A stretch of DNA of 35,944 nucleotides from a virus (Duplodnaviria; Heunggongvirae; Uroviricota; Caudoviricetes), in the IMG/VR virus record IMGVR_UViG_2645728048_000030; one strand, written 5' to 3'. Shown here piece by piece: positions 9,049 through 28,506 of the stretch (positions are counted from its first letter, which is position 1; every line of letters begins with the position of its first letter). The position numbers were made by a program, and so were the translations under genes. Under the pieces are notes generated by a model. It did no database searches and was not told the origin of the DNA. It worked only from the letters and a program-made list of their open reading frames with translations.

Positions 9049-10528
9049 TAATCACCTCAATACTGACACCACCGGGAACAAACAACGGGTTGCTGATACC
9101 GTTCCTGCGGGCCAGCCGTTGCCAGTTCCGGCTGTTTCCTGTGTAACGGTACAGAGCCACCATTGCAGGCATCGTCTCCGGCAGGCGGTGCGTTTCACTG
9201 CCTGCCAGTTGCAGCCCGCGTTTTTCCAGGTCGGCAACAACCAGCAGACGCAGTTGCGTAAGCTGAACGCTGTCTGTCGAAAAGCCCTGCTCAGATGCCG
9301 TCAGAATGACGGTATCCAGCGCTGCCCCCAGCATGGCGGCTGTTTTTCCGATATCGGACACACTTTCAAATACCGGGGGCGTGGCTGTACCACTGTCTGA
9401 AAAGGATACCTGTGAAAAGCCGCCGTCCGGGGTTATGGCAGTTAACTGTAACTGTCCCTGTGTGACGGTAGCGGATGTGCTGCTGGCCCCGCTGGCTGTG
9501 CCGGTTGTGGTGGACGGGGCATCCAGTACAGGTGCACGGGCGGCATTATCCATCCGGCGACTGAAATCCAGTGCCGCAGTCAGTGCCTGGCTTGCTGCCT
9601 CCGCCCGGTATGTCTGTGCTGCTGCCAGCATGACGTAGTTCAGTGTGGCAATATTTTTTTCTGCAACCGGACTGTTGTACGAGGTTGTGATTGTCCCCTG
9701 TCTGCCTGCGGTGGCGGCATGGCGACGTTCGAATCGCTGCGCCAGACGGTTCCATGTGGAAAATGCTGTCCGGGTATCGCATAACGATGAAACGCCGGAC
9801 AGCGCCCCCATCAGCGAGGAGGCCAGCATGGCAGGCTGGTTAATCAGGCTGGTCACAGAGCCTTTCATCGCAGAAAGCGATCCCATCAGACCGCTGACAG
9901 TCTGCGTAACCCCCAGATTGTCCACCGCATCACTGATATCATCGATGACACCGGTTACAGCTTCCATCACGGCGGTTGCCGCCGCAGTGCCATCTTTTAC
10001 GGTCTGCCAGACAGAGGACAGCGTATCTCCCAGAGAACCGGTTACAGCAACGGCCTGTGCCGGTACGGCTGCACTGGTGTCTGTCTCTGAGTCCGGGGCA
10101 GTATCCTGCAACGACGGATAAACGGTAACGGTGAACGCGTAATAATTCAGTTCATCCGCTTTAGTGCGGCATTCCCATGAATCCACCATGACGTCCACAG
10201 TGCCGAAATCAGGATGTACCAGCTCACCGCTACCCGGAGCATCAAGAGCATCCATCAGCGCACCCGCTTCATCTCTGGCTGTTTCTGCGTTGCTGTTCAG
10301 AATGCAGGCGCTGAATGTACGGGAGCGAAGCTTTTTCCCCAGGTCATTGACGCCGCCGGTATCACGTAACGGGTACTCGCGTTTAACCAGGCGACGTCCG
10401 CCAGCCTGTTTTTGCTCCTCGATGACGAGAAACGGCACGTTACGAAACGTGCCTTTGCCGGTTGTTTTCTTACCACCGCTGATTTTATCCCGGACAGCAT
10501 TAACGGCATTTAAAGCATCTTCAAACAT
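9041..10528 (-). CDS. DNA circularization protein (Mu N-like, gp43)
   Basis: 495 codons directly after the tape-measure gene; position and size as in Mu. Confidence 0.65.
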
Positions 10529-16617: not shown

Positions 16618-16651
16618 AACACATGCTCCTCCTTTTCCTTTAAATCAGGTT

Positions 16652-16675
16652 AAAAGGCGGTCTGAACCGCCTTTT
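16652..16675 (-). terminator. Hairpin immediately downstream of the major capsid gene
   Basis: Perfect 10-bp stem aaaaggcggt / accgcctttt with 4-nt loop, T-run after it on the minus strand, about 8 nt after the T stop. Confidence 0.55.
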
Positions 16676-16683
16676 AATGACGG

Positions 16684-18683: not shown

Positions 18684-18879
18684 GTCCTGCTGCTCATCAT
18701 GGTTTGTGAGCAGTCAGTTTGCGGGAGGTGCGGGAAAATCTGGGGTTATGCTATTTGAGTAATGGAGAAAGAAAGTGGAAGGAAGATAAAACGGGATTCA
18801 TACACCGTTAAATACCGGTTTAAAAATCCCGTGGCGCGTTTTAAAAAATCTGTGCGGCTGATTTTATGCCTGATTCTGT
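18684..18879 (-). promoter_or_regulatory. Non-coding gap between G and I: expected late promoter P-I and central strong gyrase site
   Basis: 196 bp without a credible ORF near the centre of the phage genome; in Mu this gap carries P-I and the strong gyrase site. Confidence 0.5.
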
Positions 18880-19350: not shown

Positions 19351-20666
19351 TTATTCACCTCCACATGCCCCTCCAGTACGTCAATCATCCCGTCAGCAAT
19401 CGCGGCTTCAAGCGACTGTGCAGATACGCGGCTGATACTGACCAGCACATCCGCACGGTCATTCTGCCTGCCGACTGTCTGTGATGTTCTGACCACAATC
19501 CGGGCCATGCCGTCACGGGTTGCCACAACATACAGCAACTGGTGGTTCTCCCTGTCCCACAATACCGCCTGTGGTTTTGCCATCAGCGACGGCAGACGCT
19601 GTAAATCTTCCGGTTTCAGGGCGGCATCAGCAGTGGTCGCCAGACTTTTCCCGTTCATCACAAGCAGACGGGCTGGCATATTCCCGGTGCGCTGATGTAC
19701 GGCTTCAGCTACCGATTCCGTCATAAAACCCAGTGCCCGGATTTCATGACCGGTCTGACGTAATCCTGCCAGGCGTTTAAGCCAGAGGGAAAAAGCAAGC
19801 TGACGCTCCCGGCTGTTATTCAGCGTCTGAACAACCTGCTCACGCAACTGCGCGTCGCGAATTTCCACCAGTTTTCGAATCAGTGCCTGATCCGTACCAA
19901 ATGCCGCCGAACCGGGGTTATATGACCAGCCCACATCCGGCGTCATTTTTACCCGACCGTTGTCAAACGTGGTTGACGATGTGCGGAAAATCTCGCCGGT
20001 GCTTTCATCCGTACCGGCATCCACTTCGCGGGTATTCATGAATGACGCACCATAACTGACCTGTAACCCCAGTTCTTTCATGCGGGCCGCAGACAGCGCC
20101 CGGACGCGACAGCGGCAGTTCCAGCCATTGGGCGGGTAATGCGTCTGCCAGAAAATGTCGTCATACCGGAAAACCATATTGTGCAGCCGCGCATGTTCCG
20201 GGCGTGTTCTGCCATCCATAACGGCAATGTACTGCCAGTACGGGTACAAATCGGCGGTATTCATCATCTGCGCATAACGTCCTGCCCCATACGCCGTACG
20301 GGTATTGACGTTATAAATGGTTGCCAGACGACGCGGACTGCCCAGCTCGATTACCTTTGCGTTTCCGTCTGCATCCACGATGATTTGTTTTCCCCACCAT
20401 CCGAGTTTTTGCAGCCGGGGGGCCAGTGTGCGGGTAAATTCCTCACGGGTGATGCCTTCACTGACAGCCCGCTCCACTTCCTCACGGATTGTGGTCAGTA
20501 CATCCATCCGGGTGGCTTTGGCAACGGTAAAGGCGCGTGCGTGCGCGTCTGCCAGTTGTTCGTACCAGTTCCAGGTGATATTGTAGCCTTTGGCGCGGAA
20601 ATACGCGACAGCCTCCTTTGGCGGGAGGCGTGCGGCATACGCCAGATCAATGGTCTGCTGCGGCAT
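19347..20666 (-). CDS. F: Head morphogenesis protein (Mu F-like)
   Basis: Track ORF extends to 20702; an internal ATG at codon 13 is the more likely start. Synteny after portal. Confidence 0.8.
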   Translation of the reverse strand: MPQQTIDLAYAARLPPKEAVAYFRAKGYNITWNWYEQLADAHARAFTVAKATRMDVLTTIREEVERAVSEGITREEFTRTLAPRLQKLGWWGKQIIVDADGNAKVIELGSPRRLATIYNVNTRTAYGAGRYAQMMNTADLYPYWQYIAVMDGRTRPEHARLHNMVFRYDDIFWQTHYPPNGWNCRCRVRALSAARMKELGLQVSYGASFMNTREVDAGTDESTGEIFRTSSTTFDNGRVKMTPDVGWSYNPGSAAFGTDQALIRKLVEIRDAQLREQVVQTLNNSRERQLAFSLWLKRLAGLRQTGHEIRALGFMTESVAEAVHQRTGNMPARLLVMNGKSLATTADAALKPEDLQRLPSLMAKPQAVLWDRENHQLLYVVATRDGMARIVVRTSQTVGRQNDRADVLVSISRVSAQSLEAAIADGMIDVLEGHVEVNK

Positions 20667-25513: not shown

Positions 25514-25760
25514 GATGTTCTGTCTCGTCTGCCAGCCGCGCGGCACGATTTGCGGCACGGATAGTGGAAAATACCTGCATCGTCTGTTCCTGACCGTGTA
25601 ACAACCATTCAGCCGTGTTGCGGGCCTGTTGCTCCGTCTGTAATTCACGGCGCAGCGTCTGGTTATCGTGGCGGGTGCTGTCCAGCCTGTGCCACAACAC
25701 CCCGGACAGAACGGCGGCAAACACGGCTGCCAGCAGTAAACTTTTACTGGCGAAGGTCAT
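25374..25760 (-). CDS. i-spanin-like inner-membrane protein
   Basis: 128 codons, N-terminal TM helix then charged helical periplasmic domain; directly after the endolysin gene. Confidence 0.6.
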   Translation of the reverse strand: MTFASKSLLLAAVFAAVLSGVLWHRLDSTRHDNQTLRRELQTEQQARNTAEWLLHGQEQTMQVFSTIRAANRAARLADETEHHDAKQKITTAITGDNCSTRPVPAVAADRLRELEKRTRAIGGDPARN

Positions 25761-26262
25761 CCGCCCCCCTGATATTCCAGATAGCCATTTCCACTTCGCG
25801 ACGGTTCATCAGTCCTTTCCATTTATGGCCTGCGGCAAACACCCAGCGGGCCATCTGGTCACGCGCTCCGGCGTAATCACCGGCATTGAGTTTTTTCAGC
25901 AGCGTTGATTTACTGAATGCGGTAACACCGGTGTTGAAAATAAACGTTGCCAGCGCCGTTTTCTGATATGGCGTCAGCGGCACCCTGACAAGACGATCGA
26001 TTGCCGCATAAACCGGTTTTAAATCACCGTCGAGAAGAGCCATACACTCCGCATGGCTGTAACGGCGCATTTCGATATCCGGCCCGGTATGTCCCACACA
26101 GACCGTAAGCACACCGGCAATATCGCGGTAAGGCATATAAGCGATATTTTCCAGATGGATCAGAGACTGACGGGTCATTTCCTGATAACCACCCACACCG
26201 CCACCGGCAATCGTTGCCGCCAGCAGTGCGGCTTTCAGTTTTTTGGGTATCCCCGCCATCAT
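25744..26262 (-). CDS. lys: Endolysin, lysozyme family, with N-terminal signal-anchor-release-like segment
   Basis: 172 codons; N-terminus KKLKAALLAATIAGGGVGGY is weakly hydrophobic and Gly/Ala-rich; directly downstream of C. Confidence 0.85.
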   Translation of the reverse strand: MMAGIPKKLKAALLAATIAGGGVGGYQEMTRQSLIHLENIAYMPYRDIAGVLTVCVGHTGPDIEMRRYSHAECMALLDGDLKPVYAAIDRLVRVPLTPYQKTALATFIFNTGVTAFSKSTLLKKLNAGDYAGARDQMARWVFAAGHKWKGLMNRREVEMAIWNIRGADDLRQ

Positions 26263-26332
26263 GCTTCCCTGAAAAAATGCTCTGATGGCAGTCTAAAAAA
26301 TCAGATGGCAGGTGCGGGATTATGGTGACAGG

Positions 26333-26360
26333 AAATAACCGGCAGGATGCCGGTTATTTC
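26333..26360 (-). terminator. Dyad hairpin at the C stop codon (middle-transcript terminator and/or C-binding dyad of P-lys)
   Basis: aaataaccggca-gga-tgccggttattt, 12-bp perfect stem overlapping the C stop; U-rich 3' arm on the minus strand; lies about 70-95 bp upstream of the lys ATG. Confidence 0.45.
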
Positions 26361-26776
26361 TGGCTTTCAGGTGAGAACAGATCAGGCTGATGACGTCGTG
26401 TATGCAGCTTTCTCTGGCGGGCAATAATCTGGTAGATCTGCGGCTGGGACAGGCGATACTGGCGACGCAGTTCTTCCATGTTACAACCATTGAACTGGCA
26501 GTAAAGCAAATCGTCGCGTAACGCGGTCAGGATCGTATCGCCGCAGGGGATGTAAAACTGCCGCCCGCCCAGAAAACAGGACAGGGCAACGGCCTGTTTA
26601 CGGGCAAGCTCACGGGGATTGCTGACGTTCTGGCGTTTCAGTTCGTTTTCCAGAACATCAATCAGATCAACCACCGAACGGGGCCAGCGTGATTCCAGTT
26701 CCGGGGCCGGGATGTTATCAATATGTCCGATTAACTGGCGAATTGCCGGATCGTGTTCAAATAAATCATGCTGCAT
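26354..26776 (-). CDS. C: Late-gene transcription activator C
   Basis: 140 codons; paralogue of Mor (shared GG.Q.YIP...FNG.N..EL motif). Confidence 0.9.
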   Translation of the reverse strand: MQHDLFEHDPAIRQLIGHIDNIPAPELESRWPRSVVDLIDVLENELKRQNVSNPRELARKQAVALSCFLGGRQFYIPCGDTILTALRDDLLYCQFNGCNMEELRRQYRLSQPQIYQIIARQRKLHTRRHQPDLFSPESQK

Positions 26777-26788
26777 ATTTTCCCCCGG

Positions 26789-26908
26789 TTAACAGACAGA
26801 AAGATACACCACGGCACTGATGGTTATCAGAACCACAAGGGCAATCACTTTTATCGCACTCATCAGCGTGGACGGCCCGAAACATTCATCACTGAATTTT
26901 CTGTACAT
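26789..26908 (-). CDS. Possible 39-codon small hydrophobic protein (below the ORF-track cutoff)
   Basis: ATG with AAGGGG about 5 nt upstream; reads MYRKFSDECFGPSTLMSAIKVIALVVLITISAVVYLSVC; fills the gap between the membrane-protein gene and C. Hand-translated. Confidence 0.3.
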   Translation of the reverse strand: MYRKFSDECFGPSTLMSAIKVIALVVLITISAVVYLSVC

Positions 26909-26917
26909 GGTGCCCCT

Positions 26918-27280
26918 TTACCCGAACAGACGAGCGCGAAAACGAAAGGAGAGCCAGAACGTCAGCAATCCGGCCAGCGCCCAGATGACATGCTCAGGAC
27001 CCGTTTTCAGTTGAGACGTTGCCATCACGGCTAATCCCAGCCCGGACAGACTCCCCAGCCAGGTCAGAGGCCAGACGAACCGGGCAAAATGTTCAGGCAC
27101 CCGGCAGCTCATTATCAGCGCATCCAGACAATCAGCGGCAACACATAAAGCAACACTGAAAACCGAGGCACAGCAAAACATCAGCGCGCGCCAGCCACAA
27201 AACAGACTTATCCACAATAACAGCGCCAGTAATACCACCGATAAAAAATCAGGCCACTGACGAGCAGAACGCTCAGACAT
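26918..27280 (-). CDS. Multi-pass membrane protein of the middle operon (holin-like; Mu gp19-like)
   Basis: Internal ATG at codon 18 with GGGAGA SD; 3-4 predicted TM helices; track ORF extends to 27331. Confidence 0.55.
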   Translation of the reverse strand: MSERSARQWPDFLSVVLLALLLWISLFCGWRALMFCCASVFSVALCVAADCLDALIMSCRVPEHFARFVWPLTWLGSLSGLGLAVMATSQLKTGPEHVIWALAGLLTFWLSFRFRARLFG

Positions 27281-27491
27281 AATGTTTCTCCCTGTAAAGC
27301 AGGCAATGATGAAGAATTTCCGGCATATCAACTGACTGCCAGCCTTTCATGTAATAACTGCCGTGGGTGCCATCATGACCGGTATAGTCGCGGGGCGCAG
27401 GCCGTGGCCCACCGGCGACACGGTGCAAAACCTCCTGACGCAGCCGCTCACGTCTGCCAAGATGAAAGGATGCATTCCAGCCTTTACCCAT
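27273..27491 (-). CDS. Hypothetical 72-codon protein, first ORF after the early terminator
   Basis: ATG with a G-rich SD-like run upstream; stop overlaps the next gene's start by 8 nt. Gly/Arg/His-rich, so uncertain. Confidence 0.4.
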   Translation of the reverse strand: MGKGWNASFHLGRRERLRQEVLHRVAGGPRPAPRDYTGHDGTHGSYYMKGWQSVDMPEILHHCLLYREKHYV

Positions 27492-27535
27492 GATGATTTC
27501 CCCCGGTACGGTTATTCATCACAGGATATTGAGGA

Positions 27536-27563
27536 CGTAAAAAAAGCCGGATTAACCGGCTTT
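27536..27563 (-). terminator. Intrinsic terminator after mor (early-operon terminator, equivalent to Mu t9.2)
   Basis: aaagccgg-ttaat-ccggcttt hairpin followed by a run of about 7 U on the minus strand, 5-7 nt after the mor stop. Confidence 0.7.
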
Positions 27564-27568
27564 ACTGT

Positions 27569-27958
27569 TTACAGAAGTGAGGGCTGGTACTGGCGGTATT
27601 TCAGCCGTCGCATCCGGCGAATGGCCTTGTAAACCGTATTGAAAGTGACACCATAACGGGTGGTCAGTTCGCTGACGTTGCGACCGTTAAAATCATTCCA
27701 GATACGCAAATCCCGAATCAGCGAGTCCAGAACCTGACCGCGTGGAATGTAGACCTGACCGCCGCCCAGATGCTTACAGATAGCCACAACAATCTCCAGT
27801 GAATGGGCAGGATCAACACCCAGCCGGGACAATTCCCCGCGCAGTAAATCGTTCAGCTCCGCCAGCAGTGCCGGAAAGCGTGACGTATCCTCTGCGGGAT
27901 TGTCAAGATGTGCCAGGATGGTGTCATCCTGCAAATCACCAAATAAATCTTCCGTCAT
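27569..27958 (-). CDS. mor: Middle operon regulator Mor
   Basis: 129 codons, recognised sequence; paralogue of C. Confidence 0.9.
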   Translation of the reverse strand: MTEDLFGDLQDDTILAHLDNPAEDTSRFPALLAELNDLLRGELSRLGVDPAHSLEIVVAICKHLGGGQVYIPRGQVLDSLIRDLRIWNDFNGRNVSELTTRYGVTFNTVYKAIRRMRRLKYRQYQPSLL

Positions 27959-28506
27959 TGTGCCATCCTCCGTGTCTTTCTGGCATGGGCATAAGCCGCC
28001 GTCATGGCATCATAGCCGCGCAGTTCACGCCCGGACGGACTGACTGGCAACGGAAGCCCGTGACGGGAAAAGGCTTCACGAATACAGCGGATATGCCACT
28101 GCTTGAGAGTTTCGAGAACAATCAACAGGGTGTCGCCATGACACCACGCCAGCGTGGAAACACCCTGTCCGCCATTACGTTTCGCCGTCAGGCGCTGAAC
28201 ATATTTATCCAGCGCCACATCACCGCCATCGGTAATAAAACCGTCTTCTGCCATCTGCTGCCAGACTTTGTATACCTTCTCGCGGGGCGTGACATGCCCC
28301 TTAAAGCGGCGACGTGGATGTTTATTCAGCTTCTTAAAGCCGCGTTCTTTCATGGCATCGAGCACCTGTTCCAGTTGCGTAACCGTCAGCTCGCGGCAAC
28401 TGATTTTGCCCGTTTTCTGCATCAGAAAAGCTCGGTAAGTGTCGTCGTCGAGTTGTAGCTCCCGACGGGCGACATGGATTAATTTAATCAGGGATGTGCG
28501 ATTCAT
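27955..28506 (-). CDS. gemA: GemA
   Basis: 183 codons immediately upstream of mor, with GGAGGT SD. Confidence 0.8.
   Translation of the reverse strand: MNRTSLIKLIHVARRELQLDDDTYRAFLMQKTGKISCRELTVTQLEQVLDAMKERGFKKLNKHPRRRFKGHVTPREKVYKVWQQMAEDGFITDGGDVALDKYVQRLTAKRNGGQGVSTLAWCHGDTLLIVLETLKQWHIRCIREAFSRHGLPLPVSPSGRELRGYDAMTAAYAHARKTRRMAQ

Follow-up and report, generated by a model that had tools for sequence, protein, structure and literature searches.

Putative intrinsic terminators packed against the activator-dependent middle and late promoters of a Mu-type prophage

We analysed a stretch of viral DNA of 35,944 nucleotides (IMG/VR record IMGVR_UViG_2645728048_000030; "the window" below), which is a Mu/D108-type prophage in reverse orientation and distinct from the reference isolate, and focused on two perfect inverted repeats at the ends of its early and middle operons. 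The first, hairpin 1, follows mor, the last gene of the early operon, and the second, hairpin 2, spans the stop codon of C, the last gene of the middle operon. Both dyads are very probably Rho-independent terminators that close the early (Pe through mor) and middle (Pm through C) transcripts and are packed against the next activator-dependent promoter. An earlier note on this DNA had suggested that each terminator dyad may double as the activator site for the next promoter. Its layout stood, as each terminator is overlapped or adjoined by a promoter and part of the Mor site coincides with hairpin 1, but the dyads are not the recognition elements: the terminator lies inside the promoter at Pm and upstream of the C operator at Plys, where activation by C is independent of the dyad. 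Our analysis of the sequences supplied the anatomy of the junctions, their identity to Mu, the promoter registers and the patterns of conservation, and the Mor and C binding sites are taken from the literature.

Anatomy of the two hairpins and chance expectation

The arms of hairpin 1 (27563-27556, AAAGCCGG, and 27550-27543, CCGGCTTT) are complementary over their full 8 bp, 5 of the pairs being G-C, and enclose the 5-nt loop TTAAT. The 5' arm begins 6 nt past the mor stop codon and the hairpin is located 52-72 nt upstream of the ATG at 27491; folded as RNA, it reaches -14 kcal/mol (z = -4.2). The stem, loop, U7 tract and spacing described in the earlier note are all in place, although 3 of the 7 T are within the stem and only 4 follow it. 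The note's 12-bp dyad over the C stop codon was also found and its stem is in fact a perfect one of 13 bp, with arms at 26360-26348 and 26344-26332, a 3-nt loop and a 6-bp GC core. The RNA fold of this hairpin 2 gives -20 kcal/mol (z = -6.0), and its distance to the lys ATG at 26262, 70-98 nt, agrees with the spacing proposed before. The elements of the two hairpins are:

27543-27563, minus strand: hairpin 1, AAAGCCGG-TTAAT-CCGGCTTT, at Pm -48 to -28 with its axis at -38; putative intrinsic terminator of the early transcript
27545-27539, minus strand: T7 run at Pm -30 to -24; U tract of the first putative terminator, between the Mor site and the Pm -10 hexamer
26332-26360, minus strand: hairpin 2, GAAATAACCGGCA-TCC-TGCCGGTTATTTC, at Plys -77 to -49 with its axis at -63; putative terminator of the middle transcript, spanning the C stop codon
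26339, minus strand: end of the GC core of hairpin 2, at Plys -56
26338-26332, minus strand: U-rich tail UUAUUUC of hairpin 2, at Plys -55 to -49

Hairpin 1 combines the features of an intrinsic terminator, a GC-rich stem-loop, a clear U-rich tract and a coding-strand position at the end of a transcription unit, and was the top-ranked terminator-like site in a pattern scan of the window. Hairpin 2 has the GC-rich stem-loop and the coding-strand position, over the C stop codon, and a U tract only in a loose sense; the simple pattern scan missed it because no U run follows the full stem. A search of the window against Rfam gave no match anywhere.

Palindromes also arise without function, and some of the counts agree with chance. 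The pattern scan found 18 terminator-like sites in total, no more than the 17.2 expected from shuffles. Perfect stems of at least 8 bp with loops of 3-8 nt gave 15 counts in the window, in comparison with 4.0 +/- 2.3 in first-order Markov shuffles of the window; as about four are expected by chance, an 8-bp dyad alone is not rare, and hairpin 1 is therefore non-random by its position, T tract and conservation and not by its length alone. On the other hand, perfect stems of at least 12 bp with the same loop lengths were found in two places (three counts with nested loops), whereas only 0.025 are expected per window. Both dyads lie exactly at operon ends, hairpin 1 is invariant among relatives whose flanks have diverged to ~50% identity, and a hairpin is retained at the C-lys junction despite the turnover of its sequence. 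These conservation data, described below, exclude functionless chance palindromes with near certainty.

Promoter registers and activator sites

Over mor-C-lys (window 25700-28000, minus strand), the identity to phages Mu and D108 is 98.7-98.9%. Coordinates were converted through a gapless alignment, the window position being 28501 - p for position p of the Mu-record locus L001. The comparison with the published promoters, which the earlier note had called for, showed a Pm identical to that of Mu and a Plys with identical operator and -10 hexamer. At Pm, there is no difference from at least -86 to +15, so that the Mor operator, the T7 run, the -10 hexamer and the placement of the mor stop codon within the UP-element subsite are all the same, and nothing of substance distinguishes the two beyond one substitution at +16, near the ribosome-binding site. 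At Plys, the C box CCATAATCCCG, the TAGACT hexamer and the hairpin over the C stop codon are common to both. The stem is 12 bp in Mu and 13 bp in the window, as a G-C pair replaces Mu's A/C mismatch at the stem base. The three substitutions between Plys -76 and lys codon 7 (at -23, at +5 and in lys codon 7) spare the hairpin from -76 down, the C operator and the -10 hexamer.

The overlap of terminator and promoter is already known and annotated for Mu. GenBank record AF083977 has one TransTermHP terminator (9179-9200) inside the feature "middle promoter, activated by Mor" (9163-9233) and another (10383-10406) with a 4-bp overlap with the feature "late promoter activated by C" (10403-10469). 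In the literature searched, we found no explicit statement of a terminator-operator overlap and no Mu 3'-end maps. Terminators with context-dependent promoter activity have been reported (bioRxiv 10.64898/2026.02.12.705533), and they likewise carry termination and initiation signals on one stretch of DNA. In comparison with these, the Mu junctions differ in that a dedicated activator is needed and the operator partly coincides with the terminator DNA, the hairpin not being the recognition element.

The numbering of Pm was anchored by primer JM1 of PMC4390567, which spans top-strand positions -87 to -48, has N at -57 and -52 and sets -57 to the G of CTGTAAAC. A first numbering, with -57 at the G of CAGTAAAG, was rejected as it yields neither a 5-6-5 dyad nor a sensible -10 hexamer. 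The Mor-binding element consists of two 5-bp inverted repeats flanking a G/C-rich hexamer, 16 bp in total and centred at -43.5 (PMC4390567); the operator extends from -51 to -36 and the Mor DNase I footprint from -56 to -36 (PMC4287176). In this register, the window has:

27567-27572, minus strand: proximal UP-element subsite of Pm, -57 to -52 (PMC4390567, mapped by the JM1 numbering)
27551-27566, minus strand: Mor operator AGTAA-AGCCGG-TTAAT, 16 bp, -51 to -36, axis -43.5; position from the literature, sequence identical to Mu
27523-27528, minus strand: probable Pm -10 hexamer TATCCT, -13 to -8, assigned by its position
27515 (A), minus strand: Pm transcription start +1 by the JM1 numbering, in agreement with the Mu promoter feature 9163-9233 (about -62 to +10)

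The sequence identity to Mu Pm, the 5-6-5 dyad at -43.5, the -10 hexamer without a -35 hexamer and the mor gene upstream mark this as a Pm-type promoter. The earlier note had expected the Mor-dependent promoter to overlap hairpin 1 and it does: the operator and the hairpin have 13 bp in common, and the footprint covers 13 of the 21 bp of the hairpin. The 5' arm of hairpin 1 provides the GC-rich centre of the operator, AGCCGG, and its loop TTAAT is the promoter-proximal Mor half-site, while the 3' arm and the T7 run occupy -35 to -24, between Mor and the -10 hexamer. Both the DNase footprint of Mor and the proximal UP-element subsite, at which the alpha C-terminal domain binds, include the mor stop codon, and ~35 bp are common to the last mor codons, the mor stop, the activator site and the terminator.

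By our own reading of the sequence, the perfect palindrome of hairpin 1 makes the bottom strand of window 27539-27555 (Pm -40 to -25, AAAAAAGCCGGATTAA) an inverted match to the Mor operator at 11 of 16 positions, with the loop TTAAT common to both. We rejected it as a real second Mor site: Mor alone protects only -56 to -36, and since the published Mor-alone footprints exclude the inverted site, it is probably unoccupied.

C binds a 16-bp imperfect dyad centred at -43.5, requires -52 to -34 for C-dependent activity and protects Plys from about -55 to -30 (PMC2582627). We obtained the register of Plys from an ungapped alignment of the four 67-bp Mu late-promoter features on ATAA (-40 to -37) and the -10 hexamer. 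With ATAA at this position, the alignment recovers the published -43.5 axis for Pmom (TTAT-N6-ATAA) and places all -10 hexamers at -12 to -7. Reading the annotated Plys feature as -60 to +8 was rejected because it gives an impossible -10 hexamer; the feature is actually -53 to +14. The elements of Plys are:

26319-26334, minus strand: C operator, 16 bp, TTCCTGTCACCATAAT, -51 to -36, axis -43.5, from the late-promoter alignment and the literature
26325-26315, minus strand: conserved C box CCATAATCCCG
26290-26295, minus strand: -10 hexamer TAGACT, -12 to -7, from the late-promoter alignment
26283, minus strand: Plys transcription start +1, from the same register

The box, the operator and the -10 hexamer are identical to those of Mu Plys and can be aligned with PI, PP and Pmom, as expected for a promoter of the Plys type. 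The C operator is downstream of hairpin 2, and the overlap of the hairpin with the region needed for C activation is limited to the U-rich tail. Plys fragments from -60 to +8 and from -52 to +8 were both activated by C and gave equal gel shifts, the shorter having ~80% of the activity of the longer (PMC2582627). As both active fragments are without the 5' arm of hairpin 2, C does not need the hairpin dyad.

We also compared Plys with PI, PP and Pmom, the remaining late promoters that depend on C in Mu. All three have the same ATAA at -40 to -37 and -10 hexamer at -12 to -7 as Plys but have the C box without an abutting hairpin: upstream of PI, the nearest terminator ends at about -82, PP is within gene N, and Pmom has its TTAT-N6-ATAA without a terminator dyad. 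In the window, a terminator-like hairpin at 18791-18832 (minus strand; ACGGGATT...AATCCCGT, followed by TTTATCTT) closes the lys operon, ending at about -82 of PI, well clear of the PI C box (ATAA 18749-18746) and with no overlap there.

These positions bear on the idea that each hairpin dyad is itself the operator for the activator of the next promoter, one symmetric element thus serving both as terminator and as Mor or C site. Such an element should have a single axis and be required for activation. The published footprints do overlap the hairpins, as the earlier note had anticipated, that of Mor by 13 bp of hairpin 1 and that of C by ~7 bp in the hairpin 2 3' arm, and the invariance of hairpin 1 among relatives is what a protein-recognised site would show. 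However, the symmetry axes are unequal: at Pm, Mor reads a different, imperfect dyad, AGTAA-N6-TTAAT, centred at -43.5, 5.5 bp from the hairpin axis at -38, and at Plys the axes are at -43.5 and -63. Mor alone leaves the 3' arm of hairpin 1 (-35 to -28) unprotected (PMC4287176). Plys fragments without the 5' arm of hairpin 2 are still bound and activated by C, PI, PP and Pmom are C-dependent yet have no such dyad, and in relatives with C at 54-81% identity the C box is retained beside unrelated hairpins. The model of the dyad as operator is already contradicted for Plys, and we regard it as very unlikely overall; for Pm, the need for the hairpin cannot be separated from that for the operator because every published Pm fragment contains the whole hairpin. 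The differing axes and the dispensable dyad at Plys indicate that the parallel between the two junctions is one of compact packing only and not of shared recognition.

Conservation of the two junctions among relatives

Relatives were drawn from public assemblies, GTDB genomes, IMG/VR and phage records (loci labelled L below). A genome-contig search for related loci using Mor alone found none, and an alignment-based scan worked instead. Every lineage with a Pm-like layout retains GAAGCCGG-T(T/A)AAT-CCGGCTTTTTTT after mor. For the 10 distinct sequences, with Mor at 61-100% identity, the numbers of invariant columns and the mean pairwise identities were:

Last 10 nt of the mor coding sequence: 0/10 invariant, identity 0.51
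Stop codon and left Mor site, Pm -56 to -48: 4/9 invariant, identity 0.80
Hairpin 1 and T7 run, Pm -47 to -24: 23/24 invariant, identity 0.98
Pm -23 to -14: 2/10 invariant, identity 0.65
Pm -10 hexamer: 2/6 invariant, identity 0.67
Pm -7 to +4: 1/11 invariant, identity 0.49

The T7 run is unchanged in all 10, and 7 of the 8 stem pairs never vary, the sole variation being a change from A-U to G-U at the outermost pair. The Pm region was found in 44 of 5426 complete E. coli genomes, in all of them on the chromosome, and in the most divergent E. coli prophage matches (H98-H100) the similarity was limited to query 30-80, corresponding to Pm -56 to -6.

The C-lys junction shows the opposite pattern. 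Four lineages have four non-homologous hairpins, the structure being kept while the sequence turns over. One relative (L006) has the Mu-type stem of hairpin 2 with a different loop and a U-A to U-G wobble; L007/8 have a textbook terminator in its place, AGCCCC-TTCG-GGGGCT with T5 after it, the GC stem ending at -56 as in Mu; and L047-49 and L050/51 have two further unrelated GC-rich hairpins in its place. All of these are upstream of a conserved CCATAATCCC or GGAATCCCC box, and the C box thus persists beside unrelated hairpins in relatives whose C has 54-81% identity.

At the C-lys junction, the structure is conserved but the sequence is not, which marks a terminator distinct from the operator, whereas the frozen sequence at the mor-Pm junction marks a terminator that doubles as promoter DNA. 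The modest new point is thus the difference between a terminator embedded in Pm and frozen, which fits a dual constraint on DNA and RNA, and a terminator before Plys that turns over freely beside a constant C box. This is a natural example of overlapping signals constraining evolution, and offers a design for the mutational separation of terminator and promoter at Pm. The constraint on the Pm hairpin and T7 run may exceed the need of a terminator or of a 16-bp operator, and the absence of double changes in the stem would fit an added constraint at the DNA level.

Several observations weigh against the two hairpins being terminators. The transcript ends are placed at them from their anatomy and the TransTermHP annotation. 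We looked for compensatory stem changes in hairpin 1 among the relatives and saw none, and without covariation the comparative data cannot tell terminator from promoter function. No clean U run follows the full 13-bp stem of hairpin 2, and this hairpin is a canonical terminator only if its GC core, with UUAUUUC directly after it, acts as the stem. Finally, the U tracts are weak in two of the four hairpins that replace it in relatives (those of L047-49 and L050/51), and these two may be stem-loops that stabilise RNA rather than efficient terminators.

Some of these points would suit hairpins that are mainly stabilisers or processing signals of RNA 3' ends, or promoter DNA only, the operons then being separated by other means such as Rho or activator dependence. 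Hairpin 1 has no covariation and lies wholly inside a promoter whose activation reportedly depends critically on adjacent downstream bases (PMC2582627), and the two C-lys replacement hairpins without good U tracts also agree with a stabilising role. Against this, the anatomy of hairpin 1 is canonical (5 G-C pairs, 5-nt loop, U7) and ranks at the top of the scan, L007/8 swapped hairpin 2 for a textbook terminator in the same register, and both hairpins are TransTermHP calls in the Mu record. We consider such roles unlikely and intrinsic termination at both junctions by far the better explanation.

Proposed cascade, gene content and further loci

Since each terminator adjoins the promoter that follows it, the genes of the next stage would be switched on by the activator just made and not by read-through. 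The early transcript would stop at hairpin 1, ~24-27 nt before the start of Pm. Mor is the last early product and would then bind an operator partly made of terminator DNA and recruit RNA polymerase. The middle transcript would extend ~1.18 kb, the distance from Pm +1 to hairpin 2, and C, its last product, would activate Plys from an operator starting at the end of the terminator's U-rich tail. The ~1.18 kb would fit a C-operon transcript of ~1.2 kb and thereby termination at hairpin 2, and an early terminator of Mu named 't9.2' has reportedly been mapped. Mu transcripts were reportedly mapped by Stoddard and Howe in 1990 and by Marrs and Howe in 1990.

The overlap at Pm could itself be regulatory, with Mor, with or without RNA polymerase, altering early termination or read-through, or with the palindrome being extruded in replicating DNA; we think this quite improbable. 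If Mor acts over the terminator DNA, it could be a roadblock or an anti-terminator on the early transcript, and if the palindrome extrudes, it could contribute to the need of middle transcription for DNA replication, a need that has been reported (PMC2582627).

The window holds the textbook early-middle-late cascade of Mu with its junctions intact and has little significance beyond Mu biology. The paralogy of Mor and C, also claimed in the earlier note, is borne out by their 37% identity (E = 9e-23) and common family PF08765. The genes around the junctions, as open reading frames, are:

27569-27958, minus strand: mor, 129 amino acids, final gene of the early operon; Pfam PF08765 (E = 4e-33), 99.2% identity to Mu Mor
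27571-27569, minus strand: mor stop codon TAA, Pm -56 to -54
27273-27491, minus strand: gp18 homologue, ATG at 27491, first gene of the middle operon; counterpart of Mu_18
26354-26776, minus strand: C, 140 amino acids, final gene of the middle operon; Pfam PF08765, 97.9% identity to Mu C
26356-26354, minus strand: C stop codon
25744-26262, minus strand: lys (endolysin), ATG at 26262, first late gene; Pfam PF00959, Mu_22

In several close relatives (L004, L005, L007, L008 and L010), a GH108/PG_binding_3 muramidase-like open reading frame of 186 amino acids replaces gp18 as the first middle gene after Pm, and the content of the middle operon is therefore variable, the Pm core and the C gene being constant.

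The only other perfect dyad of at least 12 bp in the window, TTAAAAGGCGGT-(4 nt)-ACCGCCTTTTAA at 16650-16677, matches the TransTermHP terminator at Mu 20068-20087, just past the major capsid gene T and within the late I operon. With an A tract at one flank and a T tract at the opposite one, it looks bidirectional, and it may be an attenuator that sets capsid stoichiometry.

A further 56 Mor-like genes (L011-L023 and many of L083-L128; from Klebsiella, Raoultella, Serratia, Brenneria and others), nearly all at 56-64% identity, lack a hairpin downstream of their stop codon, and the next open reading frame, within 0-15 nt, is small and hydrophobic. No second Mor/C paralogue was detected within the flanks of these genes, and the loci appear to have a different layout with a single activator. 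In another relative (L072, IMG/VR 2531839192_000008), there is an odd partial tandem duplication of the Pm hairpin region just past the mor stop codon (...GCCGGTTAATCCGGGAATCCGGCTTTTTTTACGCCCTCAATGCCGGTTAATCCGGCTTTTTTTACG...), which could reflect either misassembly at the palindrome or genuine slippage or duplication.

A clade comprising L075 (at 2270-2316) and the related L076-L086 and L098, with Mor at ~61-63% identity, keeps the Pm-type hairpin. It has a second perfect dyad of 13 bp, CACCATGAAGCAG...CTGCTTCATGGTG, followed by CTTTTAT, which overlaps the -10-like hexamer CACCAT and reaches the start codon of the next gene, a lysozyme of the GH108 type. This dyad may act as a second terminator in tandem, stopping read-through transcripts, or be part of a leader structure.

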